The notes: generated by a model from the sequence alone, not told the origin. A DNA stretch of 64,000 nt from an uncultured delta proteobacterium (GCA_963771465.1 CAVYTU010000015.1:64001-128000), one strand, 5' to 3'; numbered from the stretch's first letter, positions 25,571 to 53,613 are shown. A program made the numbers and translations.

Positions 25571-25593
25571 TACGAGTCCTCTCTAATTCCAGA

Positions 25594-25650
25594 GTTCCAA
25601 ATGTTCAAGTCGTTCAACCGCTGCGCTCCGTTCAATCGGTTTGAACGGTT
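25594..25650. repeat. 9-bp period GTTCAA repeat with inverted arm
   Basis: gttccaaat gttcaagtc gttcaaccg ctgcgctcc gttcaatcg gtttgaacgg. Confidence 0.7.
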
Positions 25651-25658
25651 ACGACAAG

Positions 25659-28823: not shown

Positions 28824-28981
28824 GTTTGTGGTCTGAGAATGCTCGCCGCTTATGCTTTTATCTGGCGCAACGCTTATCCCGAGTCACGCGAATTCAAATT
28901 CGAGCTTGGTTTCAGCACACACCGAGTCCAGATTTATCGCGAGTGATCCGGACTCGGCGCTAGCGCAGAGACTGGAGAGCT

Positions 28982-30040
28982 TTACTTTTCCGCTCTCGGA
29001 AAGCCCCATATTTCGACGATCCGTTTCGACACTCTTTCAGCCTGCGCTACGACGTCCCAGTCCGCGACTTTGATCGTGCGTCCTTTGACTTGCTTGGCCA
29101 ATTTGGTCTCGGGGTGAAAGACACTTTCACGCCCTGTGTCGAGGATCGGCAGTCCTTTGCTCGCGACCCAACCGACAAATAGTATCGCCGCATTGGCATT
29201 GGCTGCGCCTTTGACCGGGCTCAGAAGCAGACTCTGATCGCCCAAGATCGGTCCTTCCGGGAACACCCAGCCGACTGGGAAATTAGGATTGCGGCTCGCC
29301 TGCCGATACCAGGTGCCGTAACTGGTGGGACAGAGCAAGAGTATTTCGCCGGCGACCATCAGAGTCAGAGCGGCAGTGCCGCTACTCATCCATTTTGGTT
29401 TGTTAGCGGCAATTTTTTTGGCATAATCGACCGCCCATTCTTCTCCCTGAGCAGCCGCCAGTTCAGTAAATTGCTGGGGCCGCACTTCGGTTGCCATTTT
29501 CCCTCGGAAAAATGGATTGGTGCAATCGTCCCAAGTCTTCGGGATGTTCTCTTTGGGGACCTTATTTTTGTTGTACATGATCCCGCCGAGTGTGTTCGCC
29601 ACCGCTACGCCGAAGCGGCGCGGATGAATCATGCGCGGATCGATCTTAAACAGTCCGTTCCAATCGATCGGGTCAACCAAGAAACCCAAGCTCTGGAACC
29701 GTGGGATCAAGTCTGCGCCGACATGGACCATGTCATGGGTATAAATCCCGGCTTGCATCTCCGATAGCAGCCGTTCATTTTCTTCCGGACCGCGCATGCG
29801 CGCGTACTCGACGCTCTTGATGAACGGGTACTCTTTCTGAAAGGCCTTGTTGAGCGCGACCACTTCTTCGTCCACCAAATTGGACGCCCAGGAAATTTTG
29901 CCTTCTCGCTTGGCGCCCTGGAGAATCGAGTCCATCGTCAGCTTCGCTTGCGCCGCGTTGACGACCGCCGCCCAATAGCCAGGTATCGGCGCAACGACAA
30001 CACTGAAAATTAGCGCCATCGCAAACAGTTTCTTCGCCAT
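28982..30040 (-). CDS. Extracellular solute-binding protein (AfuA/FbpA-like)
   Basis: ATG 30040 follows AAGGAGG; signal peptide; GAKREGK and MYNKNKV..IPKTWDD motifs. Confidence 0.88.
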   Translation of the reverse strand: MAKKLFAMALIFSVVVAPIPGYWAAVVNAAQAKLTMDSILQGAKREGKISWASNLVDEEVVALNKAFQKEYPFIKSVEYARMRGPEENERLLSEMQAGIYTHDMVHVGADLIPRFQSLGFLVDPIDWNGLFKIDPRMIHPRRFGVAVANTLGGIMYNKNKVPKENIPKTWDDCTNPFFRGKMATEVRPQQFTELAAAQGEEWAVDYAKKIAANKPKWMSSGTAALTLMVAGEILLLCPTSYGTWYRQASRNPNFPVGWVFPEGPILGDQSLLLSPVKGAANANAAILFVGWVASKGLPILDTGRESVFHPETKLAKQVKGRTIKVADWDVVAQAERVSKRIVEIWGFPRAEK

Positions 30041-30252
30041 AAACACCTCCTTAGCCCCTGTCCTTAAGTTTCTTTCCCCTCGGCACCCGCCACGCTGGGA
30101 CTGAAGGGACAACTTTAAGATAAATCTCAACGCCGATCCCCGCACCTTACTGCGGGGCATTTAAATTTTTGAGTTTAGTATCGGAACCGATTATGCCTGC
30201 AAACGCGCAAATTACGCCAAGCACGAGATAATTGGAAGACATTAATTATCCC

Positions 30253-31248
30253 TCATTTAATGACTTTATTCGCCCGCGCCAACACCTCGGGTGGAATCGT
30301 TAGGCCGATTTGCTTGGCCGCCTTGAGATTGATGATGAACTCAAACTTCATCGGCTGCTCCACCGGCAGATCGGCTGTTTTGGTGCCTTTGAGAATCCTG
30401 TCGACAAAATATGCCGCACGGCGGTACTGATCAGGAAAGTCGATCCCGTAGCTCATCAACCCGCCGTCATCGACAAACTCTCGCGACTCGTAGATTGTCG
30501 GCAGCCGGTGCTTAGCTGCCAACTCGACGATCCGTTTTCCCGCTGCTAAAAAGTTGGGACCGCCAATCGGTATAACGCATCTACCCGCTTTCGCCTTGCC
30601 GTCTCAAAGGCATTCTCCAGACCTTTCGGGTCGCGTTTAGCCTCGATGTACGTGAGTTTCACTCTGAGCGCTTGAGCCGCAGGTTCGATCTCTTTGATCT
30701 GCCGCTTCATTCCCACGACTGGAACCGTCCCCTCGAGAAGAATACCCACCAGCGTGAGCTTCGGGACTGCATCTTTGATTACTTCCAACCTCTTGGTGTT
30801 TAGTTCAGGGGACAGGGTAACTGATCCCGGTGATATTGCCGCCCGGGCTGAGCCAGGCTATTAACGATTCCCGCGCCCACGGGATCGCCACCGCTCGTCA
30901 TGACAATCGGGATCGTCGATGTCGCTTGCTTTGCCGCCAGGGCGCCGGTGGTGCCGCGCGGCACGATGACATCGACCTTGAGTTGAACCAACTCTGCTGC
31001 GAGCTCTTTGAACCGTTCACCACCTTTTCCTTCGCCAAAGCGGTACTCGAAAGCAGATCTGTTTTCCTTCGACCCAGCCAAGTTCACGCAGTCGCTGCCG
31101 AAACGCCTCCAAGCGTGGCGCGGCAGCTGAAAAAGAACCGCCGTCAAGGAAGCCGATTCGGTAAATCTTTGCTGGTTGAGCTTCCAGCTCGATGAACAAA
31201 CCCAAGCACCGCTACAGCGACCACAACGGCAACGATTTTTCTATCCAC
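30253..31248 (-). pseudogene. Frameshifted ABC_sub_bind (putative Trp/Tyr-type) substrate-binding protein
   Basis: Fragments 31017-31205, 30800-31147, 30546-30788 and 30253-30522 join into a paralog of 31293-32270 with about 5 single-base indels. Confidence 0.8.
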
Positions 31249-31262
31249 GTGTCCGGCTCCGT

Positions 31263-31294
31263 TCATTTTGCCTTTTACATTTTGACTTTGCCTT
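31263..31294. repeat. 7-bp period repeat (TTTTGnC)
   Basis: tcattttgccttttacattttgactttgcctt. Confidence 0.5.
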
Positions 31295-32270
31295 AGCGAA
31301 TTACCCTATCCGCTCGCACCAAAACGTTCGGCGGGATCGTGAGGCCGCTCTGTTTGGCGGCTTTCAAGTTGATGATGAATTCGAATTTTATCGGCTGCTC
31401 GACGGGTAAGTCGGCAGGCTTGGTGCCTTTCAAAACCTTGTCCACGTAGACAGCGGCGCGCCGATGCAGGTCCAATGTGTTCGCCGCGTATGACATCAGT
31501 CCACCGTCATCGACATATTCCTGATTTGAGTACATCGCCGGCAGCCGGTGCTTTGCCGCAAACTCGACAATCCGTTTTCGGTTAGCGCTCATGAACGCGG
31601 AGGTAACCGGGAAGTAGCCGTCGGGCCGCTCCTTGGTTACCAACGTAAACGCGCCGTCGAAATCCTCCGGAGCTCGGATCTCATGCGATTGAATACTGAA
31701 TCCTAAAGCTTGTGCCGCTGCCTGCGTTTCTCTGAAAGCCGAGTCACTCGCGCTGTACCAGAGGACCGCGACGCGGCGAACTTTGGGGAAAGTTTCTTTG
31801 AACAGCTCTAGCCGTTTGCCGCTTAGTTCCTGTGAGATACTGGACAAACCTGTGACGTTGCCGCCAGGCCTCGCAAGGCTATCCACCAGTCCGCTTCCCA
31901 ATGGATCGTCGCTGTTCAACATTACGATAGGAATCGTGCTCGTGGCCTTTTTCGCCACCAAGTTCACCTGCGTACCGCCGGCAACGATGACGTCTACCTT
32001 GAGGCGCACTAGCTCGGCGGCCAGTTCAGGGAGCCGTTCCGCTCTGCTATCGCCGTAGCGGTATTCGATGATGATGTTTTGCCCATCGACGTAACCCAGT
32101 TTTCGCAGGCCATCGAGAAACGCGTCGCGTCTCGCCGAGTTAGCGGCGAGCGACGATAGTGTTAGATAGCCGATCCGCGGATTCTTGCCCGCCGACAATT
32201 GTGCCTGCGACGAGGGCACACCTGCCAGCAGAAAGACTGCGAGCGCGATACGGGAAACGCTTCTACCCAT
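31293..32270 (-). CDS. ABC_sub_bind family substrate-binding protein
   Basis: RIGYL, LAAELVRLKVDVIV, SLARPGGNVTG, GGLMSY and KPADLPVEQP motifs. Confidence 0.92.
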   Translation of the reverse strand: MGRSVSRIALAVFLLAGVPSSQAQLSAGKNPRIGYLTLSSLAANSARRDAFLDGLRKLGYVDGQNIIIEYRYGDSRAERLPELAAELVRLKVDVIVAGGTQVNLVAKKATSTIPIVMLNSDDPLGSGLVDSLARPGGNVTGLSSISQELSGKRLELFKETFPKVRRVAVLWYSASDSAFRETQAAAQALGFSIQSHEIRAPEDFDGAFTLVTKERPDGYFPVTSAFMSANRKRIVEFAAKHRLPAMYSNQEYVDDGGLMSYAANTLDLHRRAAVYVDKVLKGTKPADLPVEQPIKFEFIINLKAAKQSGLTIPPNVLVRADRVIR

Positions 32271-32555: not shown

Positions 32556-32680
32556 ATCTTTGCGCCATGGCGATGCTTTATGCGAGATATTCGGGACAGA
32601 TTCTTTATGCGTCCTTTGCGTTCTCTGCGGCCCAGTCTTTCCGAATCCGATGCTTTTACTTTGTGGCCTTTGTGATGAAT
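32556..32680. repeat. Composite patch of CTTTGYG-type 8-9-bp repeats
   Basis: ctttgcgccatggcg; tgcgtcctttgcgttctctgcggc; ctttgtggcctttgtgatgaa (the last unit encodes the ATPase C-terminus). Confidence 0.55.
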
Positions 32681-34812
32681 TCAGAATCCGCCTTCTCAGC
32701 ATTGGCGCGTTCCAGCAGCACTTGTTCCAAGGCGGCGAGCAGATGCGACGGCGAGAGTGAAATGTCTTTGCGATAATTGCCGTCGCGCAGGCCGACCAGT
32801 TTGGCTTTCTCGCAGATCGCCGAGAGATCGGCGCCGGAGAAACCTTCGCTGCGCTCGGCCGCGGTTGCGATCGCCTGGTCGAGCTTTTCTTTTTCAGGAA
32901 TGCTCGACAGTAGTACCGTGAGTATTTCTTTGCGGCCTGCTAAATCGGGCAGGCCGACGTAGATTTCTAATCCAAGCCGGCCCGGCCTGAGCAGCGCGGG
33001 ATCGAGCAAATCGCGCCGGTTGGTGGCGGCCAGAACAATCACCTGGCTCGCGGCGCGTAGCCCGTCCATCTCGGCGAGCAGTTGGTTGACCACTCGTTCG
33101 GTGGTGGCGTTGGCCGCTTCGCCGCGCCGTTTGGGCGCGATGGCATCGATCTGATCGAACAGAATTACGGTCGGCTGCACCTGGCGCGCCATCTGAAAGA
33201 CATCGCGGATGGTCTGCTCCGATTCGCCGAGCCACATGCTGAAAATCTCCGGGCCGTTGACCGGAATAAAATTGGCGCCGCATTCATGCGCCAGTGCCTT
33301 GGCAACCATCGTCTTACCCGTTCCCGGCGGACCGTAGAGCAAGATCCCCGGTGAGCGGCGCAGGCCCAGCCGAGCGAAGGCGTCGGGATAGATCAACGGC
33401 GTTTCCACCGCCTCGCGCAGCTGGTTGATGACCTTGTTCATGCCGCCGATATCTTTCCAACCGACATCCGGCGTCACCCATAAAGTCTCGCGCAATGCGG
33501 AAGGCGAAGTTTTCTCCAGCGCGGCAACGAAGTCGTCTTTTTTGACGACGATCTGTTCCAAACTGCCGGCGCCGCGTAGCGAAGAGAATCCCGGGCCGGC
33601 GGCGGCGCGCAGCGCGGTGAGTCCGGCTTGGCGCACTAACTCCATCAGATCGGCGCCGACGTAGCCGTGGGTGCGGTGCGCTACCTCCGGCAAAAACGCG
33701 ATCGCCTCTTCATCCATCGGCACGCGCCGGGTGTGGATGTTGAGGATTTCCAAGCGCCCTTCGGCGTTAGGCGGCGCAATGAATATCTCGCGGTCGAAAC
33801 GGCCTGGCCGACGCAGCGCCGGATCGACCGAATCGACTCGATTGGTCGTGCCGATGACGACGACGTCTTCCATGCTGACCAAGCCATCGAGCAGAGAAAG
33901 CAATTGTGTCCCCATGCGCACGTCGGCTTGCGAGCCGCTCTCGCCGCGGCGCGGCGCGATGGCGTCCAACTCATCCATCATGACGATCGACGGACTATGT
34001 TCCATCGCCTCTTCGAAGACCCGGCGCAAATTGGCCTCGGTGCCGCCATGCACGGAGCTCACCAGCTCGGGGCCGTTGACGTAAAGAAAGTGCGCGCCGA
34101 TCTCGTTGGCGATCGCTTTCGCCAAATAAGTTTTGCCGACTCCCGGCGGTCCGTAGAAAAGAATGCCGCGCGGCGCTTCGATGCCGAGGTGTTCGTAGAC
34201 TTGCGGAAACTGGATCGGACACTCGACCAACTCGCGGATCGTCTCGATCTCGGCGGACAGCCCGCCGACATCGTCGAAGGTCACCATGTTCGCCGCGACG
34301 CCGGCGCGCAGCGCGCTGGTGCGCAGCACCACCCGGGTATTTTCGCCGACAAACGAGCGGTCGGGCTCGGCGGAGATGACGCGGAAAATAATATTGCGCG
34401 GAAACTCGAATAGCTTTACCGACAGCACCATGCCGCTGCACGTCAATTGTTTCTCTTCGACAAAGCGAGTTTGTAGCTCGCGCTCCAGCGTCGTCAGGTT
34501 GCCGGTGAGCGGCGCCATCGGTTCCAACACCAGTCGTTTGGCTTCGTCGATCTTTACCGAGTTGAAAGTGATTTTTTCGCGCAGATCGGGTTTTAGAAAC
34601 TGAATCTGAAAGCGGTCCAAACGGACGCAGCCGCGCCCTTCATCCTGCGGCCGCGCCGCAACCCGCGCCAACAGCCGGCGCGCCCGCTGCGTGGTCAATT
34701 CCACCACACTGCCATCCGCGATGCCGTCTTGTTTGAGAATCAACGGATCGACAAAGGCGATATTGCGCCCGCTCTCCGCGCTCGGTAGCCGTTCCACCGG
34801 CAGTTGTGTCAT
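32656..34812 (-). CDS. Cdc48/p97/VAT-family double-ring AAA+ ATPase (N-D1-D2)
   Basis: CDC48_N-like N-domain (RNIAFVDP..DEGRGCVRLD). D1: VTFDDVGGL, GPPGVGKT, MMDE, ALRRPGRFDRE. Linker PSALRE..PDVGWKDIGG. D2: GPPGTGKT, MWLGESE, LFDQID, ALLRPGR. Confidence 0.93.
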   Translation of the reverse strand: MTQLPVERLPSAESGRNIAFVDPLILKQDGIADGSVVELTTQRARRLLARVAARPQDEGRGCVRLDRFQIQFLKPDLREKITFNSVKIDEAKRLVLEPMAPLTGNLTTLERELQTRFVEEKQLTCSGMVLSVKLFEFPRNIIFRVISAEPDRSFVGENTRVVLRTSALRAGVAANMVTFDDVGGLSAEIETIRELVECPIQFPQVYEHLGIEAPRGILFYGPPGVGKTYLAKAIANEIGAHFLYVNGPELVSSVHGGTEANLRRVFEEAMEHSPSIVMMDELDAIAPRRGESGSQADVRMGTQLLSLLDGLVSMEDVVVIGTTNRVDSVDPALRRPGRFDREIFIAPPNAEGRLEILNIHTRRVPMDEEAIAFLPEVAHRTHGYVGADLMELVRQAGLTALRAAAGPGFSSLRGAGSLEQIVVKKDDFVAALEKTSPSALRETLWVTPDVGWKDIGGMNKVINQLREAVETPLIYPDAFARLGLRRSPGILLYGPPGTGKTMVAKALAHECGANFIPVNGPEIFSMWLGESEQTIRDVFQMARQVQPTVILFDQIDAIAPKRRGEAANATTERVVNQLLAEMDGLRAASQVIVLAATNRRDLLDPALLRPGRLGLEIYVGLPDLAGRKEILTVLLSSIPEKEKLDQAIATAAERSEGFSGADLSAICEKAKLVGLRDGNYRKDISLSPSHLLAALEQVLLERANAEKADSEFITKATK

Positions 34813-34899
34813 TCGTAACGTCCTCCGATCAGTAGCCGGAATTTATCAGCGAGAAGGTGCCGCGTTTTTTCCTCGGCACACTGGAACATTCGGGCTTGA

Positions 34900-34965
34900 A
34901 TCGCGCTCATGGCTCGCGCTCGTAGGCAAACGATTACGAGTCACGAGCAGAACACGAACACGATT
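34900..34965. repeat. Inverted element of 6-bp units (CTCGYG / CACGAG)
   Basis: tcgcgctcatggctcgcgctcgt ... acgattacgagtcacgagcagaacacgaacacga. Confidence 0.55.
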
Positions 34966-36087
34966 TCACGACTTGTTCCAACTCGAAGCGTCGCTGATAT
35001 GTTCGATGCCGCCGAGAAACTCATGGGACAGCTGGCGCGACCAGCTCGAGATCAGTCGCGCCGGGCTGCTGCCGTCGTTGAAATGCTGATGCGCCGTCAT
35101 CGGCGGGATGCAGATCACATCGCCGGCTTCCCACGGATATTTGGTCTGCTCGTGGACATCGTAGCCTTTGCCCGCTTGCACGTAGATCATTTCCTCGAAG
35201 ATATGGCGGTGTTTGCCGGTGTGGCCGTTGGCCTCGATCTCCATCGTCATCAGGTCCATGGCCCGCGCCGCCACCTCGGTCCACAGGCTGATGTAAAATT
35301 TGAGCTTGCCCTGCCGGGTGTTTTCCAGCGCCGTGTCGGCGCCCTTGATCACCCGCGGCCCTTTTACTTCGGTGTTGTTCTCTTCGACCAGTCGATCGAG
35401 AAACCAATCGTACTTGGTTTTTCCCGTGGCGCCTTGCTTCACCGCTCGGCGCGCCGAGAATACCGCTTCGCGCTTGCCGTCGGCGCCTTTGCGCACTTCC
35501 ATGTCTTCTTCCAAGCCGAGCAAACCGCGCGGGACTTTGAATCCAACCAGCTGTCCCGCGTTATCTTTGATCGGCAGCGTTCCTTCGGGAATCGATTTGA
35601 AATCGAACTGCTCCTGCCACAAAAGACCGAGCACGTGCCAGAGCCGCACCTGCGGCAGCCAGGCGCGAAAGCCGGTTTTGTCGTCGGCAATGAACTCCTG
35701 TGTAGTGTACGGCGGGATGACCACAACGTCGTTGGCTGAGAAAGCGTAGCTCTGGCCGTCTTGCACCGAGGTGCCGCTGCCTTCGAGAATATACGCGGTC
35801 ATCGACGGAATCAGCCGGACTTTTTCGCTCCGCTCGCCGGCTTTGAGATCGATAAAGCTGGCGGTCAAAGCACTCAGCGGCGCGACAGTGAAGCGCTCGA
35901 AGACACGCAGGTCGCCCAGGATATGGCCGCCCTTGGCGAACATCGGCGGCTTGACCACCCGCGGCAACAACTCCATGCGCTCGCGCTCGAGCTTCTGTTT
36001 AATGAACCGACCCTCGTAATCGTAATAGAGCTTTGGGTCGACTTCCGTCTCGCGCAAATTTTCTCGGACTCGTTCTTTCTCCGCCAT
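34966..36087 (-). CDS. Bicupin protein (paralog D; N-terminal cupin lacks His ligands)
   Basis: C-domain TGKHRHIFEE...PMTAHQHFN; N-domain SEKVRL...PPYTTQEF. Confidence 0.85.
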   Translation of the reverse strand: MAEKERVRENLRETEVDPKLYYDYEGRFIKQKLERERMELLPRVVKPPMFAKGGHILGDLRVFERFTVAPLSALTASFIDLKAGERSEKVRLIPSMTAYILEGSGTSVQDGQSYAFSANDVVVIPPYTTQEFIADDKTGFRAWLPQVRLWHVLGLLWQEQFDFKSIPEGTLPIKDNAGQLVGFKVPRGLLGLEEDMEVRKGADGKREAVFSARRAVKQGATGKTKYDWFLDRLVEENNTEVKGPRVIKGADTALENTRQGKLKFYISLWTEVAARAMDLMTMEIEANGHTGKHRHIFEEMIYVQAGKGYDVHEQTKYPWEAGDVICIPPMTAHQHFNDGSSPARLISSWSRQLSHEFLGGIEHISDASSWNKS

Positions 36088-36092
36088 GATTC

Positions 36093-37238
36093 CTATCTTC
36101 CTTTCTCGTTGTATTCGGGGGCGTCTTCGATTTGCTCAATGCCGCCGACGCCAAGATCGGCACACATGCTCGGCATGGAGCTCATCAGCAGCACCGGATT
36201 GTCGGGATCGCTGTTGAAATGCTGATGTTCGACCATGGCCGGAATATTGATCAAATCGCCCTTCTGCCAATTCCACCGCTCGCCGTCGTGAATGTCATAG
36301 CCGTTGCCGTTGATGATGAAGATTTGCTCCTCGGCCATATGACGATGTTTGCCCGACCGGCTCGCCGGTGGAATTTCTTGCAGGTAGAGCCACACGCGCC
36401 GCGCCGATGAGTCAACGTGGGGATGGGTGTACCATTTCAACCGTCCCTGCCGCGTCCACTCCCACGGTTGTTCTTCGTAGCGAATGACGTGGGTAATGGA
36501 TTTGCAGAACTTGACCTCGTCGCCGAGCAGCTTCAAGTAACGATCGTAAGTATTTTCCGTCGGACCGCTCCACTCTTTGCTCTCCAAGCGGGCGCGAAAC
36601 ACGCCCTCGACGTCGGGTGATGGCCCGAGGAAAACGTCGATGTCTTCGGTGATTCCCAGGATGCCTTTTTTGATCCGGTAGCCGATCAGCTTCTTGTCAT
36701 TGTCGTATAGCGGCTCTGTGCCCGCCGGGAACGTCGGCTTATCAGCAAACTTGATCTGCTCGCGGTGCAACAACCCGAGGGCGTGGATCATGCGCGACTG
36801 CGGCACGTAGATTTGGCAGCCAACGTCGCGGTCGCCGCCATGTTGATGAATCGTGTACGGTGGCACGATCAATAAATCGAATACTTCGAATTCATAAGTC
36901 ACGCCGTCGTTCCACTCCCACCCCTTACCGGCGATGCAGAATAAAGTCGGCGCGCTAATATGGCGGTGCGCGCCGCGCACCGGCGCGTTGGCCGGAATAT
37001 CGGAAAAATGACAAGTGAGGATATGCATTGGCGCGCGGTTCAGGATGTCGTAGCAGAGCAGATCGCCGGTCTGATGCGGACTGCTGTGACCGTTCATCGT
37101 TCCCTGCGGCGGAATTGGCTTTATCACTCGCGGCAGTTGATTGACGAAGTATTCCTCCCGATCCTGATGCACAAAACGCTTCAGCCGATCCGAATGAGCG
37201 ACTTCCGCGTTACTTTCCCATGGTGTTAAGTCAGACAT
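36093..37238 (-). CDS. Bicupin protein (paralog C), gentisate 1,2-dioxygenase-like motifs
   Basis: RGAHRHISAPT...PPYTIHQH and SGKHRHMAEE...EHQHFN. Confidence 0.88.
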   Translation of the reverse strand: MSDLTPWESNAEVAHSDRLKRFVHQDREEYFVNQLPRVIKPIPPQGTMNGHSSPHQTGDLLCYDILNRAPMHILTCHFSDIPANAPVRGAHRHISAPTLFCIAGKGWEWNDGVTYEFEVFDLLIVPPYTIHQHGGDRDVGCQIYVPQSRMIHALGLLHREQIKFADKPTFPAGTEPLYDNDKKLIGYRIKKGILGITEDIDVFLGPSPDVEGVFRARLESKEWSGPTENTYDRYLKLLGDEVKFCKSITHVIRYEEQPWEWTRQGRLKWYTHPHVDSSARRVWLYLQEIPPASRSGKHRHMAEEQIFIINGNGYDIHDGERWNWQKGDLINIPAMVEHQHFNSDPDNPVLLMSSMPSMCADLGVGGIEQIEDAPEYNEKGR

Positions 37239-37263
37239 TCAAAACCTCCGAGTGTAGAAACTG

Positions 37264-37368
37264 GTCGAGGATAGAGGATAGAAGATCGAGGATGGCAAAT
37301 CCGAACTCTGACGTCCGACCGCCGACCTCTGTCTTTCAATCTTCCATCCTCAATCCTCTATCGTCGAC
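37264..37368. repeat. Inverted element of 7-bp units (GAGGATA / TCCTCWA) with nested CTCYGAC units
   Basis: gtcgaggatagaggatagaagatcgaggatgg ... ccatcctcaatcctctatcgtcgac; related element at 57179-57243. Confidence 0.75.
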
Positions 37369-38493
37369 CTATCCACTAAACTCCGGCGCATCTTCCAACT
37401 GCTCGATGCCACCGACGCCTAAATTAATATACGTCGCCGGCATGGCGCAGAGCAGCTTCACAGGATCGGCGCCGGAATTGAAATGCTGATGCTCGGTCAT
37501 GCCGGGGATGCAAATCAAATCGCCCTGCTCCCAGTTCCAGCGCTCGCCATCGTGGACGTCGTAGCCTTTGCCTTCGAGCACCAAGATCAACTCTTCCGAC
37601 ACATGGCGATGACGGCCGGAACGGCTGCCGGGAGGGATTTCGTGGAAGTAGATATATTTACGCTTGGTCGCGATCACCATTTCCGGATGGATAAGCCATT
37701 TGATTTTGCCCTGCCGGGTCAATTCCCAGGGTTCGTCCTTTTCCATCACGACGTGCGGCGCGTGACGGCAGAGATCAGCCTCTTCATGCATCAGCTTCAT
37801 GTAGCGGTCATAGGTATTTTCCACCGGACTCGTCCAGTTACCCGCGCCGCGGCGCGCTTGAAAGCTCGCTTCACGGTTGGGCTCCGGCCCCAAGATGACT
37901 TCGATGTCTTTGGTGATGCCGAGCACGCCTTGCTTGATGCGGTAGCCGATCAAATTTCCTTCGGCGTCATTGATCGGTTCGGTGCCCTGGGGAAAGGTCG
38001 GCTTCTCGTTGAGCTTATGCTGCTCGCGCCAGATCAGTCCCAAGACATGATGGATGCGGCCATCTTCGGGAACGAAGATCGTACAGCCGATGTCCTTGTC
38101 GCCGCCGTGCTGGTGCACGGTGTAGGGCGGCACGGTTAGAATATCGTAGGTTTCGAAATTGTAAGTCTCGCCGTCGTTCCACTCCCAGCCTTTGCCGGTG
38201 AGGCAGAAGAGCGATGGCGCGCCGATATGCCGGTGGGCGCCGCGCACCGGCGCGTGCGGCGCAATGCGGGTAAAGTGACTGGTCATGCAGTAAAGCGGCC
38301 CGCGCGTCAGCATGTCATAGGAAATGTGATCACCGGTCTGATGCGGGCTATCCATGCCCATCACCGTCGGCTGCATCGGCAGTTGTTTCAGCGCATGCGG
38401 CAACGACTGTGCTTTGGTATCTTCCTGGCGCTGATAAACAAACCGCTTCATCTGGTCCGGCACGTTCTCAATTTCACGCCACGGTTCGAGCAT
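37369..38493 (-). CDS. Bicupin protein (paralog B)
   Basis: RGAHRHIGAPS...HQH and SGRHRHVSEE...EHQHFN; tail GGIEQLEDAPE. Confidence 0.88.
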   Translation of the reverse strand: MLEPWREIENVPDQMKRFVYQRQEDTKAQSLPHALKQLPMQPTVMGMDSPHQTGDHISYDMLTRGPLYCMTSHFTRIAPHAPVRGAHRHIGAPSLFCLTGKGWEWNDGETYNFETYDILTVPPYTVHQHGGDKDIGCTIFVPEDGRIHHVLGLIWREQHKLNEKPTFPQGTEPINDAEGNLIGYRIKQGVLGITKDIEVILGPEPNREASFQARRGAGNWTSPVENTYDRYMKLMHEEADLCRHAPHVVMEKDEPWELTRQGKIKWLIHPEMVIATKRKYIYFHEIPPGSRSGRHRHVSEELILVLEGKGYDVHDGERWNWEQGDLICIPGMTEHQHFNSGADPVKLLCAMPATYINLGVGGIEQLEDAPEFSG

Positions 38494-38591
38494 TGCTTCG
38501 GCCTCTTACTAATTTTTATTCACCACGAAGGACGTGGAATGGAAAGTTATTCGCAAAGCTGCCGAGTTTGCGGTCTTTGCGGCAAACCTCT

Positions 38592-39707
38592 TCACTCCGG
38601 CGCGTCTTCCAACTGTTCGATGCCGCCCAGACCTAATTCGGCGTAAATGCTCGGCGCCGCGCTGAACAAAAGCGCCGGGCTATCGCCGAGAGAAAAATGC
38701 TGGTGCGTAGTCATCGTCGGGATACAGATCAGATCGCCCTGCTCCCAGTTCCAACGCTCGCCGTCATGGATGTCGTAGCCTTTACCCTCAAGCACGAGAA
38801 TCAATTCTTCCGCTACATGCCGGTGCTGCCCGGAACGGCTGCCCGAATCGATCTGCTGGAAATAAATCCACGCATGATTGGTCGCGGTTTGCGTATGCGG
38901 ATGAACCATCCATTTAATTTTTCCTTGGCGGGTTTGCTCCCAAGGCTCTTTGGTATCGCGCGCGACGTGATCCACCTTGCGGCAGAAGTCCGCCTCGTCA
39001 TGCATGAGCTTGAGGTAGCGGTCATAGGTGCTTTCCACCGAGCCGTTGAATGAACCCGCCGTCCGGCGCGCCTGAAAGCTCGCTTCGCGATTGGGTTCCG
39101 TACCGAGAATGACTTCGATATCCTCGGTGATGCCGAGCACGCCTTTCTTGATTCGGTATCCTTTCAGTACGCCGTCTTCGCCGTAGATCGGCTCGGTGCC
39201 GTCGCGGAAAGTCGGCTTCTCGTTGAGCTTATGCTGCTCGCGCCAGGTGAGGCCCATGAGATTGCCCACCCGGCCGGTCTCAGGCACGTAGATCGTGCAG
39301 CCGATATCTTTGTCGCCGCCATGCTGATGCATGGTGTAGGGCGGCACGATGAGCAGATCGTAGGCTTCGAAATTGTAAGTTTCGCCGTCGTTCCACTCCC
39401 AGCCTTTGCCGGTAACGCAAAATAATGTCGGCGCGCCAATATGGCGATGCATGCCTCGTACCGGCGCCTGCGGCGCCACCCGAGTGAAATGGCTGGTCAT
39501 GCAGTAGAACGGCCCACGGGTCAGCATGTCGTAGCAAACATGGTCGCCGGTCTGGTGCGGACTATCCATGCCCATCACCGTCGGCTGCATCGGCAATTGC
39601 TTCAAAACATGCGGCAATGAACGCGCCTTGGCGTCTTCCTGCTGCTGATAGACGAAACGCTTGATCTGATCGGGCTCACGCTGAACTTCACGCCATGGCT
39701 CAAGCAT
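38592..39707 (-). CDS. Bicupin protein (paralog A)
   Basis: ATG 39707 (MLEPW) follows GAGG; RGMHRH...HQH and SGQHRHVAEE...HQHF. Confidence 0.88.
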   Translation of the reverse strand: MLEPWREVQREPDQIKRFVYQQQEDAKARSLPHVLKQLPMQPTVMGMDSPHQTGDHVCYDMLTRGPFYCMTSHFTRVAPQAPVRGMHRHIGAPTLFCVTGKGWEWNDGETYNFEAYDLLIVPPYTMHQHGGDKDIGCTIYVPETGRVGNLMGLTWREQHKLNEKPTFRDGTEPIYGEDGVLKGYRIKKGVLGITEDIEVILGTEPNREASFQARRTAGSFNGSVESTYDRYLKLMHDEADFCRKVDHVARDTKEPWEQTRQGKIKWMVHPHTQTATNHAWIYFQQIDSGSRSGQHRHVAEELILVLEGKGYDIHDGERWNWEQGDLICIPTMTTHQHFSLGDSPALLFSAAPSIYAELGLGGIEQLEDAPE

Positions 39708-39766
39708 AGTATTTACCTCTGCCAAATTTGAATATTCACAACGGATCCCCCAAGCTTGGGGCCTGT

Positions 39767-40780
39767 CTACAACCCCAACGTCGCCGGCGCGAACAGCTCT
39801 TCGAGTTTGAACTTGTTCTTCGTCAGCCCCTGCTCGTGCGAAAAATCGACGATGGTTTGCAACATATTTTTATTCGCCTTGATACCGTAGGGGAACGGAT
39901 CGTTGCCGAAAATCGCGCGCGTCTTGGCCAAATATTCATCGCGGAATATCAGACCGCTGGGAATGCTATCTTTGAAACGCTCTTGCCAATACTCTTTGCT
40001 CGCGACAAGCGCTTTGTAGAGATTAAATGCCAGCCAGGGATATTTGCGGTCGATGTCGCCGCGAATGATATAGGCATGGTTTGCCGGGACGTAACCGTGT
40101 TTTTTGAAATAACGTGTTCCCTCTTCGATGATATCGGGGAATAGCGGCTTCACCTTGCTCCAGTCGCCGCCGCGGGCGCGAATCTGCGTGGAGCGGTCGA
40201 CGATGTTGCTCTCACGCGAAAAGGCGCGGTGCACAGACGCCACGTCAAGCTCATTGTTGACCATCATCGATGCCAGGCTCTTGTCGTTGGGGATCCGGTG
40301 GAACTTGATTCCCGGCGGCGGCGTAAAGCCGGTGGCGCCGCCGTGGCTTAGTTCTTCGCTTCGTTCCATGTACCAATCGACCTTGTACTGCGATACGCCG
40401 AAATCATGCTCCAATATACCGCGCACCCATAAGGACGCGGTTTGCTGATACTCGCCCACGCCGATGCGCTTGCCGACGATGTCTTCCGGCTTCTTGATGC
40501 CTGAATCGACGTGGTAGGAAAGCTGGCAATGCATGAAGCGACGCGATGGGAAGACGGGAATCGCAATCATGTCCATGCCGTTCGACTTGGCAATCAGATA
40601 CGATGACAGTGACATTTCCGCAATCTCGAACTCCTGAAAGTTGAGCTGGCGCCAGAAGGTTTCCGACGGATCGGAGTAAGTCGTGATCAGCTCAGCGCCT
40701 TCGATGGGCACCGCGCCATTGATTACCGGCTCAACCCGCTCGTTTTCACCGGTGATGAAACTAAATTGCAATTTGGCCAT
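39767..40780 (-). CDS. 4,5-dihydroxyphthalate decarboxylase (Pht5/OphC)-like protein
   Basis: P.ETFWR...FEIAEMSLSSY, AIPVFPSR.F, GKRIGV.EYQQTA..W.RG.L and PYG...N motifs; no signal peptide. Confidence 0.8.
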   Translation of the reverse strand: MAKLQFSFITGENERVEPVINGAVPIEGAELITTYSDPSETFWRQLNFQEFEIAEMSLSSYLIAKSNGMDMIAIPVFPSRRFMHCQLSYHVDSGIKKPEDIVGKRIGVGEYQQTASLWVRGILEHDFGVSQYKVDWYMERSEELSHGGATGFTPPPGIKFHRIPNDKSLASMMVNNELDVASVHRAFSRESNIVDRSTQIRARGGDWSKVKPLFPDIIEEGTRYFKKHGYVPANHAYIIRGDIDRKYPWLAFNLYKALVASKEYWQERFKDSIPSGLIFRDEYLAKTRAIFGNDPFPYGIKANKNMLQTIVDFSHEQGLTKNKFKLEELFAPATLGL

Positions 40781-40893: not shown

Positions 40894-41994
40894 TCACTTT
40901 ATCTCGTTAACCAGCTTCTTCACCACGTCGCGATCCCAGACATCAGGCCCCCACAGCCGCTGGTATTTTACATTTTTCTGCCGGTGCGCCCAGGCAGGGA
41001 AGTCATCTTTGGGAATGTCTTCGCGTAAAGAATTGGGACCCGGGTCGTTTGGCTCGCCCTTCTGGACGGCGATCTGTCCCTCGCGCGAGAGAAACCAGTT
41101 GATCATCACCTTGGCGGCGTTTGGATGGGGTGCCTTGTTCAATAGCGCGATCATCGTCCCGCCAGCTTCCATCGCCACGCCTTCTTTCGACATCGCATGG
41201 GGATCCATCACGTCTACCGGCAGGCCCTGCTTCTTGGCTTCGTCGACTTCGGTCGCTTTAGCCGTGATCGCAATCGGCACTTTTCCCGACGCGATCCAGT
41301 CGGTCTGTTGGCGCTCGTCGCGCACTAAAGTAAGCCCGCCGACGGTTATAAGTTTTTTCAAATACTCCTGGCCCAAACTCGGATTATAGTAGAGAAACAG
41401 TAGCGGGCTAGCACCCCCTGGGTCGTTGGGATCCTTCGCGCTGACCTTGCCTTTCCATTTCGGGTCGAGCAGATCCCAGAACGATGTCAGACTTTTTGGA
41501 TCGACCAGCTTGGTGTTATAAGCCACCATGCGCAGAGGAAAGGCGGCGTAGATGAAAATGTAACGGTTCTCACCGTCATTATAATGATGCTTGCCGTCAA
41601 ACCATTTCGAAGCATCTTTCACCTCGGGCATGATCAGCGCCGGGGGGATCGGATCAAAGGCCTTGGCATTCAACATCGTCATCGCCGTGCCGCCGCCCGT
41701 TCGGACAACGTCGGCGAGATATTTTCCCGCACGCCGCTCAGCCATAATGCGCTGCAAGATTTGCGACCCGCTGCCGGTGATCAAATTGAGTTTGATCTTG
41801 GGATATCTTTTCTGGAAAGCATGGAACTCGGCATCCGTGGCCAGCTTGTAAACGGTGACTTGCCCTTCCTGCTCCGCCGCCTTAACTGTCCGCTCCCATT
41901 CATCGCCTGGCGAACTTACCGCCGCCGCAAAGCTCGTCCCATGCAGCAAGAACGTGGATAAACTAAGCGCCACCAGGCTTCTGAGAAGCATCAT
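40894..41994 (-). CDS. Extracellular solute-binding protein (AfuA/FbpA-like)
   Basis: Signal peptide, W..TVKAAEQEG, DLLDPKWKGK and APHPNAAKV.INWFLSREGQ motifs. Confidence 0.9.
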   Translation of the reverse strand: MMLLRSLVALSLSTFLLHGTSFAAAVSSPGDEWERTVKAAEQEGQVTVYKLATDAEFHAFQKRYPKIKLNLITGSGSQILQRIMAERRAGKYLADVVRTGGGTAMTMLNAKAFDPIPPALIMPEVKDASKWFDGKHHYNDGENRYIFIYAAFPLRMVAYNTKLVDPKSLTSFWDLLDPKWKGKVSAKDPNDPGGASPLLFLYYNPSLGQEYLKKLITVGGLTLVRDERQQTDWIASGKVPIAITAKATEVDEAKKQGLPVDVMDPHAMSKEGVAMEAGGTMIALLNKAPHPNAAKVMINWFLSREGQIAVQKGEPNDPGPNSLREDIPKDDFPAWAHRQKNVKYQRLWGPDVWDRDVVKKLVNEIK

Positions 41995-42093
41995 AAGACT
42001 TCTTCTCCTTTGAAGTTCGATATATGCATTTCATCACCAATATCCATTGCAGTAAAGCCGCAACCGAAACTGGAAGTCGGCGTACTTAAACCA

Positions 42094-42762
42094 TCACTCG
42101 CCCTTGAAACCGCCAACAATCGCCGTATTGGTCTCACGCCAGAAACAATCGATGTCACGAAAACCGGCGCGCTTGAGCAGGCTAAACTGCTGCGCCAGAC
42201 TCGGCGCGGCGCCGTCCATTTTCGCTGCGTGGCCGCGGGTTTTAATTTGCAGCTCGCGGAAGTGTCGGCGCAAAGCCGGCGTTGCAAAGTTAACCCGCTC
42301 GATATTCATGAAGACGCCGCCGGGACGGAGTAATTCATGAACCTGACCGTACACCGGACCGATGAGCTTGAGTTTGCGCAGATTGTGGATCGCCCGTGCG
42401 CTCACCACCGCGTCCAACTGCCGCGGCAAGTTCGTAATCCAATTCTCCGCGCCAAAATCAGCCTGCGCGTAACTTACTCTGTCGCCGTAGGATGCCAGAC
42501 GTTGACGCGCGAGCTTCAGCATCTCATCGGAGCCATCCGAGCAAATGACGTGCATATCGGGAAACGTCGCGAGCAATTTCTCCGCCAATGTCCCAGGACC
42601 GCAACCCAGATCCATTACGCGAGATTGTCCGCCGACAAACACCGACAGCCAACTGAGCGCAGCGGTAAATTGCGCTTCGCGCTCCGCCGCGCGCCGGCTA
42701 TCCTTGTCGACCCATTCTTGGTCATACTGTTGCGAGCCCCACTCATGTTCGCTTTTCGCCAT
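42094..42762 (-). CDS. Class I SAM-dependent methyltransferase
   Basis: VMDLGCGPG, DAVVSARAIH and LRPGGVF motifs; ATG 42762 follows GGAG. Confidence 0.88.
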   Translation of the reverse strand: MAKSEHEWGSQQYDQEWVDKDSRRAAEREAQFTAALSWLSVFVGGQSRVMDLGCGPGTLAEKLLATFPDMHVICSDGSDEMLKLARQRLASYGDRVSYAQADFGAENWITNLPRQLDAVVSARAIHNLRKLKLIGPVYGQVHELLRPGGVFMNIERVNFATPALRRHFRELQIKTRGHAAKMDGAAPSLAQQFSLLKRAGFRDIDCFWRETNTAIVGGFKGE

Positions 42763-42926
42763 CTTACACTGCTCCAATCAGTTAACCTTGAGCCACACTC
42801 CGCCTTGGCCCATGCCAACAGCGCGCTGAAAAGCGCGAAGTTTTCGTCATCTATTTAAGCCCTGTGTTTGGCTCCAGTTCCTTCCGCAGCCGCTCAGGAC
42901 AAGCTTTGCGACTAATCCGACCAATT

Positions 42927-44024
42927 TCAGCGCGTCACCTGACAGTGATCGGGCGGCACGTGAACGTAGACCTGTTCACCGGGCTGAAATAGTTCATGGG
43001 GGCTCAGCAGGGCGCGGAAGATTTTGCCTTTGATCAGCACTTCGCCGTCGATAAAGCTGCCCAGGAACAGTGAGCGCTTAATCGTTCCCTCAAAACAATT
43101 ATCGACAAACTTGCTGCGCTCGTGGGAGCACATCAATGCTTCGGGGCGAATTACGACAAAGACCGAATCGTTGACGTTCACTTCTTCGTTTTTGCTGAGA
43201 TCCACCAAGATCGGCCCGAGCTCGGTATCCACCGAGCCCTTGTCACCGGTTATGGTCACTCGTCCTTGGAGCGCGTTGGCAGTACCGAGAAACTCAGCCA
43301 CCAGTTTGTTCTTGGGCCGTACGTACATTTGATACGGCGTACCCACCTCGACCAACTCGCCATTCATGATCACACCGACGCTGTCCGATAGCGCCAGCGC
43401 CTCGGTCTGGTCGTGGGTGACAAAAAACGTCGTGATACCGACGGCGCGCGCCACTTCCTTTAACTCAACGCGCATCTCCTCGCGTAGCTTGGCGTCTAGA
43501 TTGCTGAGCGGTTCGTCGAGCAAGAGCAGTTTGGGTTTGCGCACCAGCGCGCGCGCCAGGGCGACACGCTGTTGTTGACCGCCGCTCAATTGAGTCGCCG
43601 GCCGACTGGCGTAGCCGCCCATTTGCACTTGAGCTAAAGCCTCGTTTACGCCTTTTTCGACGTCAGCTTTTGAATGTTTTTTTCCTTTGGCGCCGTAGAG
43701 CAATGGGAACGCCACGTTGTGAAACACGTCCATGTGCGGCCAGATGGCGTAGGATTGAAACACCATGCCGATGGGCCGCTGTTCGGGCGGTACGAGAATC
43801 TGCCGTTTAGCCGAAAAGACGCACTCGCCGCCGATGTGAATCTCACCGTCTTCGGGCTGCTCCAAGCCGGCGATGCAGCGCAACGTCGTGCTCTTCCCCG
43901 AGCCGCTGGGCCCGAGCAAAGTGAAAAATTGTCCCTCGGCGATATCGATGTTCACGTCCTGCACGGCGCGCACCTCGCCCTTGTCAACCACGAAGCTTTT
44001 TCTCAAGTTGTCGATTCTTAGCAT
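42927..44024 (-). CDS. ABC ATP-binding protein (FbpC/PotA-like, with TOBE domain)
   Basis: GPSGSGKST, LSGGQQQ, LLLDEP and VTHDQ motifs. Confidence 0.93.
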   Translation of the reverse strand: MLRIDNLRKSFVVDKGEVRAVQDVNIDIAEGQFFTLLGPSGSGKSTTLRCIAGLEQPEDGEIHIGGECVFSAKRQILVPPEQRPIGMVFQSYAIWPHMDVFHNVAFPLLYGAKGKKHSKADVEKGVNEALAQVQMGGYASRPATQLSGGQQQRVALARALVRKPKLLLLDEPLSNLDAKLREEMRVELKEVARAVGITTFFVTHDQTEALALSDSVGVIMNGELVEVGTPYQMYVRPKNKLVAEFLGTANALQGRVTITGDKGSVDTELGPILVDLSKNEEVNVNDSVFVVIRPEALMCSHERSKFVDNCFEGTIKRSLFLGSFIDGEVLIKGKIFRALLSPHELFQPGEQVYVHVPPDHCQVTR

Positions 44025-44065
44025 AGGTCTAATCTCCAATACTCAATTGTTACCGCCATATTGTT

Positions 44066-45232
44066 TTACCATGGGCCGCACGTTTGCTGACTGAGTCGCA
44101 CGTCGCGTTTTTCCCGATCCGATTCGAGAATCGCCAGACAGACCTCGAGAGTCGCCTTGGCCCATCGACCATCCGGATAAAGCTTTTTCGGTTCAGCGAT
44201 CGCTTCACGCAACGCTAGCAGCGCACCGGTCACAGAAGGTCTTCCCTTGCCGGGATAGCTCGAACAAGAAATCTCCTGGCAGCCCGCCGCGGTGTAAACA
44301 TAAAGCCCGCTCTGGGATTGGCGCAGATCGCCCTTTTCGCAGCTCACTAATGTAAAGCCATAAAACGGTTGGCCTTTACCTTCCGGCGATCCGAAAAAAT
44401 AATCCCGCCGCGGCGCCGCCTGATACTTGGTCGCTTCGTCCGCCGCCGCGGTAAAACGCTCGTCAGTCGGCGGGCCGCCCGCAGTGCTCATGCCGTGGGT
44501 AAGCTCCCGCGTACTGAAAAAGCCATAGCCGTTCATCACCATGGTGACCGGCGTACCATCCGCCATTTCGATGAACGCGGTATAGTTGCCTTCGGTATCT
44601 TTGAAATTTACATCCCACCGGCCGGTCATAGCCCGCACGGTTTTCACCATGCCGCCACCGATGGCGCGAATGATGTCGGCCTGGTGCGGCGCTTGACGAA
44701 AGACGACACCGCCGCCGGCATCCGTGCTGAGTTCGGAGGCCAGGCGCGCTTTACGCTGCAACCAGCCGCCGTACATCCAGGTGTTGATTTGAATCACTCG
44801 CCCGAGCTCGCCGCTGCGCACGATCTCCGCCATTTTTTTAACCGGCGGATCGTAAATGCGCGAGTGGCCGTAGACGAGCTTGACATTGGCCTTGTCCGCC
44901 GCGGTGATGAGAACATCAGAATCCGCCAGCGTGAGCGCCAACGGCTTCACGACGATGACGTGCTTGCGGTTGGCGATCGCCGCCAGCGCATTGGCAACGT
45001 GAAATTTGTTCGGCGTGGCGACGTAAACCACGTCCACCACGTCGCTGGCGCACATCTCGTCGACGCTGGTAAAACTATTCGTGCCGTATTTTTCATGGTG
45101 CGTGCGCAAGGCGTCCTGGCGAGTGTCCGCGATCGCGGTGAGTTCGAATCCCGGCAAACCGGGAACCGCCTGGACGACTTGGCCGCCGGCATCGCCCACG
45201 CCGGCAACGCCGACTCTTAGTGTTTGCGCCAT
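44066..45232 (-). CDS. Gfo/Idh/MocA oxidoreductase, phthalate 4,5-cis-dihydrodiol dehydrogenase-like
   Basis: GVGDAG, VATPN.FH, KP.A, GHS, GGGVVFRQAPHQ.D, TEGNY.A and DGRWAKATLEVC motifs. Confidence 0.85.
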   Translation of the reverse strand: MAQTLRVGVAGVGDAGGQVVQAVPGLPGFELTAIADTRQDALRTHHEKYGTNSFTSVDEMCASDVVDVVYVATPNKFHVANALAAIANRKHVIVVKPLALTLADSDVLITAADKANVKLVYGHSRIYDPPVKKMAEIVRSGELGRVIQINTWMYGGWLQRKARLASELSTDAGGGVVFRQAPHQADIIRAIGGGMVKTVRAMTGRWDVNFKDTEGNYTAFIEMADGTPVTMVMNGYGFFSTRELTHGMSTAGGPPTDERFTAAADEATKYQAAPRRDYFFGSPEGKGQPFYGFTLVSCEKGDLRQSQSGLYVYTAAGCQEISCSSYPGKGRPSVTGALLALREAIAEPKKLYPDGRWAKATLEVCLAILESDREKRDVRLSQQTCGPW

Positions 45233-53427: not shown

Positions 53428-53613
53428 GCAGTCGCGCAAGACAGCACCCCGGTGAAATCGCTGATAAGAAGGATTGCACCCACGACAATTTAACCGAAGT
53501 CGGAGACTTCACGGTGACCCCCGCTTGCCGATTGACGCGAGTTTTTCTAAGATCACCCCATTAACTCGTAGAAATTCTTTGAATGAAGACTCCGAGAAAG
53601 CGAGGACACTGCA

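Follow-up and report, generated by a model that had tools for sequence, protein, structure and literature searches.

Cdc48, p97, and VAT act as segregases together with the proteasome or ubiquitin-type systems, and their bacterial homologs are treated as sporadic, Cpa aside. NSF, a type II AAA+ protein of a different subfamily whose clients are SNARE complexes reached via SNAP adaptors, divides the labor between its two rings: D1 works, while D2 binds ATP without hydrolyzing it and holds the hexamer together. AAA+ proteins also serve as dedicated partners of metabolic enzymes, as in Rubisco activase/CbbX, CbbQ-CbbO, NorQ-NorD, CoxD, and RavA-LdcI. On the enzyme side, the two-subunit hydroquinone 1,2-dioxygenases PnpCD/HapCD are heteromeric cupin-type enzymes with one catalytic and one non-catalytic subunit, and we know of no ATPase partner for them. 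Cpa is reported to combine a mildly degenerate D1 (lacking the sensor Asn and the Arg finger) with a strictly conserved D2; its gene belongs to a psd-pssA-cpa operon, and the protein binds the 20S proteasome (PMC6017811). Here we analyze a 64,000-nucleotide stretch of DNA from an uncultured delta proteobacterium (GCA_963771465.1 CAVYTU010000015.1:64001-128000; hereafter the window), in which a Cdc48/VAT-like ATPase (P0001), four bicupins (P0002 to P0005), and a decarboxylase homolog (P0006) are encoded side by side.

The original prediction, made from the sequence of the window, proposed that this ATPase had been recruited as an assembly, metal-loading, or reactivation factor for the cupins and knew of no description of such an arrangement. 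We likewise found no description of it in the literature, nor any ATPase partner for a client of the cupin dioxygenase-like class, with subscription journals and supplements lying outside our coverage. The results below place P0001 in a clade of Cdc48 proteins in which the catalytic residue of the D2 Walker B motif is substituted, and they tie this clade to one family of cupins in at least three phyla. We put at roughly one half the probability that the ATPase is a D1-driven remodeler dedicated to a heteromeric gentisate-dioxygenase-like enzyme.

Results

P0001 belongs to a Cdc48 clade with a substituted D2 Walker B residue

P0001 (718 residues; 32656..34812, minus strand) contains two AAA modules (PF00004), two AAA_lid_3 domains, and a weak match to CDC48_N (29.7 bits, against a cut-off of 35.1). 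It scored 665.9 bits against the CDC48 family TIGR01243 (E 7.5e-200, residues 12-677), short of the cut-off of 802.65, and its best solved relative by sequence was Thermoplasma VAT (5g4g, 592 bits). The AlphaFold2 model of P0001 had a predicted local distance difference test score (pLDDT) of 81.5 overall and of 80-90 for residues 1-165, which form the N domain, and Foldseek aligned the model with p97 chains over 711-731 columns, N domain included (E 1e-65). With two AAA modules, their lids, and a model that aligns with p97 over its full length, the complete N-D1-D2 architecture claimed by the original prediction was confirmed.

Motif analysis revealed that D1 carries a Walker A motif GPPGVGKT, a Walker B motif MMDELD, and a pore loop SSVHGG, while D2 carries GPPGTGKT, LFDQID, and SMWLG, respectively. 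When a Walker B Glu was looked for in both rings, the DE pair was present in D1, and D2 had Gln in place of the catalytic Glu; D2 also has Gly instead of the Asp that follows the Arg finger. P0001 has neither an archaeal-type D1 pore loop (K-F/Y-Y-G) nor an HbYX motif at its C terminus, which reads ...EFITKATK.

To place the protein among its relatives, as the original prediction had suggested, we aligned 115 Cdc48 sequences from the fetched loci and built a tree with FastTree. P0001 fell in a distinct monophyletic bacterial clade of 15 sequences (support 1.0, stem 0.61), with the remaining 100, among which there is one duplicate (L038 = L067), outside it; it is thus no generic Cdc48. At position 554, the catalytic site of the D2 Walker B motif, Gln was found in all 15 clade members (one of them with EQ), whereas Glu was found in 100/100 of the others. 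The D2 segment reads RPGR(F/L)G in the clade versus RPGRFD in the 12 other sequences displayed, and the D1 pore loops of the clade (SSVHGG, SSVYGE, GTYTGE, and similar) differ from the (S/H)K(F/Y)YGE of the others, with no aromatic residue in the bicupin-linked branch. Much of the remaining machinery is kept: the D1 Walker B DE is intact in 15/15 members, both Walker A motifs and the D2 sensor Asn are retained, both D2 Arg fingers are present in 14/15, and the D2 pore-loop Trp is conserved as S(K/M)WLG. An HbYX-like C terminus, present in many archaeal sequences, is absent from the clade members.

We also looked for a protease that could take over substrates from the ATPase. Among 40 window proteins scanned (20.6-59 kb), there was no peptidase, proteasome, or Pup match, in agreement with the original prediction. 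In the whole genome, a PF00227 search gave a single match, a 193-residue frame on another contig, and no 20S alpha/beta pair. The genome holds several FtsH-like genes and an HslV-like frame.

Cupins of one family accompany the clade across phyla

The original prediction proposed that the gene neighborhood be compared across genomes. Among 41 related genomes, the window's own (G000) included, which represent the same genus, a sister family (f2), and a third family (f3), full-length matches to P0001 (E ≤ 1e-60) were found in 3/24 same-genus, 5/5 f2, and 0/11 f3 genomes; in a fourth same-genus carrier (G024), the ATPase is cut by the contig end. Bicupins lie directly upstream of the ATPase in the same-genus loci. 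In three f2 genomes (G025, G027, and G029), an ATPase 49-50% identical to P0001 is preceded by a EutA-like gene and two monocupins of ~165 residues, and locus L012 has three additional monocupins on the other side of the ATPase. No cupins accompany the Cdc48-like genes of the remaining two f2 genomes or the second such gene of G029, all of which are of the ordinary type.

We extended the comparison to 401 genomes of the phylum, 44 of which have a Cdc48-like gene at E ≤ 1e-120, and fetched 20 loci with wide flanks. Three of these loci, at 46-80% identity, hold four bicupins, two monocupins, and a UbiD gene (on a 4.2-kb contig), respectively, and no cupin of the P0002-related family was found in the 17 loci at 39-44% identity. 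A scan of one-genome-per-species contigs with the ATPase gave at least 80 loci. Among the matches listed, cupins flank the ATPase in a Stellaceae genome, two Beijerinckiaceae genomes, and two Deltaproteobacteria metagenome-assembled genomes (MAGs), and an Actinomycetota MAG has two bicupins upstream and two monocupins downstream; flanking cupins were absent from a Chloroflexi MAG, an Allosphingosinicella genome, and 72 archaeal loci. Last, in 401 Actinomycetota genomes, scoring of the top two candidates from each genome (E ≤ 1e-150) gave five matches, the starting genome G441 included. Three of them were new D2-Gln proteins, all with adjacent cupins, while a new D2-Glu Actinomycetota locus, as well as the second Cdc48 of the Chloroflexi genome, had none.

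Among all loci fetched, cupins of the family lie beside the ATPase in 16/18 D2-Gln loci versus 0/94 D2-Glu loci; the latter comprise 72 archaeal loci and 22 bacterial ones, part of them from the same phylum as clade loci. By their source labels, the 16 linked loci come from Binatia-like or Deltaproteobacteria MAGs, four Actinomycetota (L068 and L237-L239), and three Alphaproteobacteria (L071, L073, and L075), and the sources label the nearest homologs Candidatus Binatia or Deltaproteobacteria MAGs. The distance between cupin and ATPase ranges from about 20 nucleotides to about 2 kb. Two D2-Gln loci are unlinked: L050, whose 4.2-kb contig breaks off within the ATPase, and L069 from the Chloroflexi MAG; both ATPases fall within the clade. 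The other neighbors (PhtD-like, UbiD, Amidohydro_2, LigB, RraA-like, and transporter genes) vary among the loci, as does orientation, and the cupin-ATPase pair is what persists while the surrounding genes differ. The longest contigs listed for 14 ATPase homologs and for 14 P0002 homologs were equal in length, which suggests shared contigs; since equal length does not establish identity, this agreement is not counted as evidence here. The clade itself splits into a bicupin-linked branch, comprising the window, the same-genus loci, G331, and the actinobacterial L068, and a monocupin-linked branch, so that the ATPase tree follows cupin architecture.

Taken together, these comparisons uphold the linkage to cupins in other genomes and phyla and, in this respect, the proposed recruitment of a Cdc48 to cupins. 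The four tandem bicupins are not a conserved core, since the linked loci hold two to four bicupins or pairs of ~165-residue monocupins, and the ATPase is neither a generic Cdc48 nor an obligatory part of the system.

Several loci deserve separate mention. Genome G331 (L048 and L049) has two D2-Gln Cdc48 genes, an 80%-identical one after four bicupins and a 46%-identical one after two monocupins. In L016 (positions 7-1116; G007:C125), a 59%-identical same-genus Cdc48 homolog is a 369-residue open reading frame (ORF) that ends after D1 and lies six bases from the contig start, with a P0002-like bicupin ahead of it; this may reflect a genuinely shortened protein or a false stop introduced during assembly. 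A full-length EutA-family gene (PF06277, E 8e-57) occupies 12057-13616 of L012 and recurs in L013 and L014, between the monocupins and Cdc48, and no ethanolamine ammonia-lyase was found among the neighboring ORFs scanned at these f2 loci. A weaker EutA-like match occurs in the ATPase-linked L167 (10671-11951). The EutA-like gene may encode a second ATP-dependent, reactivase-like partner. Beside the ATPase of L069 is a 977-residue ORF (7562-10495) that by eye resembles a helicase or restriction-enzyme subunit.

The cupin next to the ATPase is usually the degenerate type

The four window bicupins are paralogs, 36-75% identical, all encoded on the minus strand: P0002 (373 residues; 34966..36087), P0003 (381 residues; 36093..37238), P0004 (374 residues; 37369..38493), and P0005 (38592..39725), which is 75% identical to P0004. 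The ORF of P0005 is listed from a TTG at 39725, but its start is probably the ATG at 39707 because P0005 matches the start of P0004 from residue 7 onward. All four bicupins have the motifs HRH and HQH in the C-terminal cupin; in the N-terminal cupin, only P0003-P0005 have them. P0002, the bicupin nearest the ATPase, keeps HRH...E and HQH in its C-terminal cupin and has no His ligands in its N-terminal one. Its AlphaFold2 model (pLDDT 80.5) is a bicupin, for which Foldseek returned gentisate 1,2-dioxygenase as the top hit (3bu7, E 2.5e-17), followed by oxalate decarboxylase and salicylate dioxygenase. The best NCBIfam matches were those to gentisate (TIGR02272, 47.1 bits with a cut-off of 442.1) and 5-aminosalicylate (NF049978, 58.7 bits with a cut-off of 650) dioxygenases, and they covered one cupin domain; the window cupins match AraC_binding as well.

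The monocupins are likewise of two types, B with an H-x-H motif and A (cupA) without the motif-1 His pair in 7/7 aligned sequences, one of which keeps a single motif-1 His. In the bicupin loci whose layout was examined, the cupin nearest the ATPase is always of the P0002 type save in L167, which has its ATPase farther upstream; the A type takes this place in the monocupin loci for which gene order was examined. An N-terminal ERVRE motif is common to P0002 and the B-type monocupins, and an acidic C-terminal tail (GG-I-E-Q/H-x-x-D-A-P/S-x-aromatic) is common to all family members. We had considered this tail as a handle for the ATPase and dropped it as a discriminating feature because ATPase-free bicupins share it. 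In the ESM Atlas, only cupin clusters were found, most commonly in Candidatus Binatota. The window's genome is itself rich in cupins, with 60 cupin-domain matches to P0004, many of them paired in one frame of ~350-390 residues, which indicates dozens of bicupin genes.

P0006 (337 residues; 39767..40780, minus strand), described as decarboxylase-like in the original prediction, turned out to be a full-length homolog of 4,5-dihydroxyphthalate decarboxylase (PDB 9jp7_A; E 6e-45, query 1-334 versus chain 21-343); in Pfam it gave a weak Phosphonate-bd match only. A P0006-like gene recurs beside the cupin family with and without the ATPase.

The same cupins also occur without the ATPase

As a reverse test, we scanned metagenomes with the P0002 family and obtained 80 loci, 50 of which were evaluable, having 1.5 kb or more of sequence on the downstream side of the P0002-like gene. 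The ATPase was present in 14/50. Its presence correlates with a segment of ~36 residues between the two cupin domains: the ATPase was found in 14/18 loci whose P0002-like protein has this segment and in 0/32 loci where it is lacking. The shorter, segment-free proteins are always preceded by a P0003-like gene, and the P0003-like partner itself retains the segment whether or not the ATPase is there. A P0002-family protein from a Nocardioides species (P0192) has the segment as well. Neighbors at the ATPase-free loci include genes for NMT1-type binding proteins, subunits of molybdo-flavoprotein dehydrogenases, and a luciferase-like monooxygenase, as well as PhtD-like genes. The ATPase is not an obligatory part of the cupin system: the same bicupin-pair family is common without Cdc48, and the large sister group of ATPase-free pairs makes the ATPase an accessory of one part of the cupin family. 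The cupin pair would therefore be a self-sufficient catabolic enzyme.

The locus lies within an aromatic-acid catabolism island

The six minus-strand genes (the decarboxylase homolog, the four paralogous bicupins, and the ATPase) were found at the coordinates given by the original prediction, and so was the range of gaps, 5-153 nucleotides. From the ATPase onward, the gaps measure 153, 5, 130, 98, and 41 nucleotides, the last becoming 59 with the alternative P0005 start. The statement that repeats fill the larger gaps holds in part. It is true of the intergenic element at 37239..37368, a palindrome with 53-nucleotide arms (37263-37315 and 37317-37369) that are 72% complementary and of which the genome has 16 further partial copies; it looks like a dispersed element of the repetitive extragenic palindrome (REP) or miniature inverted-repeat transposable element (MITE) type inside the operon. 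It is not true of the 153-nucleotide spacer between the ATPase and its nearest bicupin (34813..34965), which is unique in the genome. A promoter or terminator in this spacer had been named as evidence against the proposed system; simple scans of the coding (minus) strand gave no sigma-70-like promoter and no terminator. In relatives, the equivalent spacer measures about 30-220 nucleotides.

Contigs from four soil RNA libraries (four studies) match parts of the ATPase, bicupin, and decarboxylase genes, which is not proof of transcription; in X1, the run with the largest share, they show 0-5 differences from the locus. One RNA-library contig (39272-40274), again not proof of transcription, spans the junction between the decarboxylase and bicupin genes. 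No listed contig bridges all of 34813-34965, one X1 contig covers position 34949, and some runs have no cover over several parts of the locus, and these observations count neither way. As backing for a dedicated ATPase, the RNA contigs are weak support.

Co-oriented genes continue on both sides (minus strand). Upstream, 40894..45232 encodes an SBP_bac_1 solute-binding protein, an S-adenosylmethionine (SAM) methyltransferase, a PotA/FbpC-like ABC ATPase with TOBE_2, and a GFO/IDH/MocA oxidoreductase; downstream, 27090..32270 encodes an ABC_sub_bind protein, an SBP_bac_8/1/6 binding protein, and a 577-residue double BPD_transp_1 permease. The actinobacterial locus L068 is flanked by similar genes for a permease, a binding protein, and a TOBE ATPase. 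The surroundings are an island for aromatic-acid uptake and catabolism. Farther out, at 24206-26996 and 52255-54888, are two tandem MmgE/PrpD paralogs, an Amidohydro_2 protein, and a LigXa-like Rieske oxygenase, and at least nine solute-binding protein genes lie around the locus, which suggests a large island for lignin-derived aromatic acids. Two adjacent ORFs without a Pfam match (54897-55502 and 55522-56043) read as if a solute-binding protein had been divided into an N-terminal and a C-terminal half, perhaps because its gene is frameshifted or split; a check for monocupins showed that they are not cupins. The locus was also checked as a defense system and rejected, with PADLOC returning only generic AAA-domain similarity (IetA and TRIP13) for the ATPase and none for the cupins or the decarboxylase homolog.

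Discussion

The results reported above show a conserved gene pairing, spanning several phyla, between one clade of Cdc48 proteins and one family of cupins. We hypothesize that the cupins form a heteromeric metalloenzyme resembling gentisate 1,2-dioxygenase, made of catalytic subunits and of subunits with a degenerate metal site, which would act downstream of the dihydroxyphthalate-decarboxylase-like enzyme as part of a cluster devoted to importing and degrading a hydroxylated aromatic or heteroaromatic carboxylate. In the ATPase, we infer from the motifs that D1, with all catalytic motifs, would be the motor, and that D2, with its binding motifs kept, would be a nucleotide-locked ring that holds the hexamer together, a division of labor that would be nearer to NSF than to p97. 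The ATPase would act on the cupin oligomer, probably via the degenerate subunit encoded nearest to it, in assembly, subunit exchange, or reactivation, for example when oxidized or lost iron is replaced. The absence of an HbYX motif from the clade, the failure to find a 20S pair in this genome, and the non-aromatic D1 loop of the bicupin branch make it most likely that the ATPase remodels its client rather than fully unfolding it. A predicted complex between ATPase residues 1-180 and P0002 scored 0.00 twice, without controls, which speaks neither for nor against binding.

A bolder version, which we regard as tentative and rather less probable than the remodeler in general, would make P0001 the first Cdc48-family enzyme activase. 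Here, the D2 Walker B "trap" would hold the hexamer, D1 and the N domain would grip the dead cupin subunit of a heteromeric Fe(II) dioxygenase and pry the oligomer open for metal or subunit exchange, by which the inactivated enzyme would regain its activity, and lineages deleting the inter-domain hairpin of this subunit would no longer have needed the ATPase and would have lost it.

A number of observations weigh against a dedicated remodeler and have to be set beside the evidence for it. D2 might still hydrolyze some ATP despite the Gln in its Walker B motif. L069 has no cupin within its 17-kb locus, the cupins are on the opposite strand in 3/16 linked loci (L072, L237, and L238), and in five linked loci the nearest cupin and the ATPase are separated by another gene, which is EutA-like in L012-L014 and TctC-like in L073 and L075. 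Related genomes are non-independent samples, and the inter-domain segment had been noticed before it was counted. In 32/50 evaluable metagenome loci, a P0003-like gene is paired with a short P0002-like gene, and Cdc48 is absent over distances of up to 6 kb. Within the same genus, G012 and G022 carry the bicupin pair, and G001 and G011 carry at least a P0003-like bicupin, with only single-AAA-domain matches to P0001 and no double-ring Cdc48 in any of the four (completeness 94, 95, 65, and 88% for G012, G022, G001, and G011, respectively). The window's genome also has a fifth close bicupin, 58% identical, without an ATPase nearby.

Cdc48 and p97 normally act through cofactors bound to the N domain, and the cupins beside the ATPase, the degenerate ones especially, might be ligand-sensing adaptors or regulators that switch Cdc48 on in the presence of the aromatic substrate, with other proteins as the clients. 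That the cupin nearest the ATPase is of the degenerate type, L167 excepted, and that the cupins match AraC_binding, a ligand-sensing cupin family, would fit such a role. However, the degenerate cupins are always found together with catalytic-type cupins whose His motifs are intact, and the cupin pair is widespread without Cdc48 in catabolic clusters, which implies that the cupins have a function of their own; we consider the adaptor role unlikely. To much the same degree, we doubt that the ATPase is a quality-control or turnover factor that would extract or unfold damaged or unneeded catabolic enzymes, the cupins included, and pass them to a housekeeping protease such as FtsH, Lon, Clp, or HslV, its expression being coupled to that of an oxidative pathway in which proteins are damaged. 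Turnover is the canonical role of Cdc48 and VAT, the D2 pore-loop Trp, S(K/M)WLG, is kept, and FtsH-like genes and an HslV-like frame are at hand in the genome. Yet the loss of the D2 Walker B Glu in 15/15 members and the non-aromatic D1 loop of the bicupin branch argue against processive threading, and the lack of HbYX, of a 20S pair in the genome search, and of a peptidase among the window proteins scanned points the same way. Moreover, the linkage is to one cupin family and not to oxidative pathways generally: Rieske, Amidohydro_2, and PrpD genes are found in the window itself, and genes of these kinds are present at ATPase-free cupin loci too.

It could also be that the two genes merely travel together in a mobile catabolic island and that their linkage has been inherited without any functional tie. 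The clade is patchy, being present in about 4-5 of the 24 same-genus genomes, in scattered phyla, and, within 5/401 matching Actinomycetota genomes at E ≤ 1e-150, as a D2-Gln form in 3; this pattern suggests horizontal transfer, and kin are not independent. Inherited adjacency is nevertheless the least probable of the alternatives, and quite improbable in our judgment, given that the pair persists at 45-55% ATPase identity while the other neighbors, gene order, and cupin architecture change, that the ATPase tree splits by cupin architecture, and that family cupins were found at 0/94 other Cdc48 loci. A remodeler dedicated to the cupin enzyme thus remains our preferred reading.

Tied to one family of metabolic enzymes in at least three phyla, a Cdc48 clade with a substituted D2 residue would extend the known functions of these ATPases by a new class, and the clade would provide a natural experiment on the division of labor between D1 and D2. 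If the proposal is true, cupin ring-cleaving dioxygenases can have an ATP-driven helper, which is relevant to the expression of such enzymes and to the turnover of aromatic compounds in soil. The system is directly testable, as it consists of two or three small genes and one ATPase, with natural ATPase-free sister systems as controls.

How does the locus compare with the described systems? With VAT, Cdc48, and p97, P0001 shares the N-D1-D2 order, the Walker A motifs, sensor Asn, and Arg fingers of both rings, and the D2 pore-loop Trp. It differs from them in having DQ rather than DE in the D2 Walker B motif, RPGR(F/L)G rather than RPGRFD, and a D1 loop other than KYYG/KFYG, in lacking HbYX, and in falling below the TIGR01243 cut-off; it is also bacterial and stands beside cupin genes rather than alone. 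Like Cpa, it is a bacterial member of the Cdc48 family of hexameric ATPases without a classical HbYX motif. In contrast to Cpa, D1 is intact here and D2 is altered, cupins are the neighbors, and the genome search gave no 20S pair; on the grounds of the reversed D1/D2 motif pattern and the different operon, we reject the reading of P0001 as Cpa. The resemblance to NSF lies in the division of labor between D1 and D2, as suggested for the clade by motifs only.

The cupins share with the gentisate, salicylate, and 5-aminosalicylate 1,2-dioxygenases, which are bicupins with a 3-His Fe(II) site, the bicupin fold, the HRH and H-x-H motifs, and the best sequence matches in NCBIfam and PDB. They differ in their scores, which are far below the gentisate and 5-aminosalicylate cut-offs, in occurring as two to four paralogs or as monocupin pairs with a degenerate partner, and in their acidic tail. 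No detectable sequence relation to PnpCD/HapCD was seen. As for the dedicated AAA+ partners of metabolic enzymes, there too the ATPase gene adjoins that of the client enzyme, and the enzyme family exists elsewhere without the ATPase; adjacency of ATPase and putative client conserved across lineages is what the 16/18 versus 0/94 count shows for the present clade. Those partners, however, are single-ring proteins of the Rca/CbbX or MoxR type, whereas P0001 is a double-ring protein of the Cdc48 family with an N domain.

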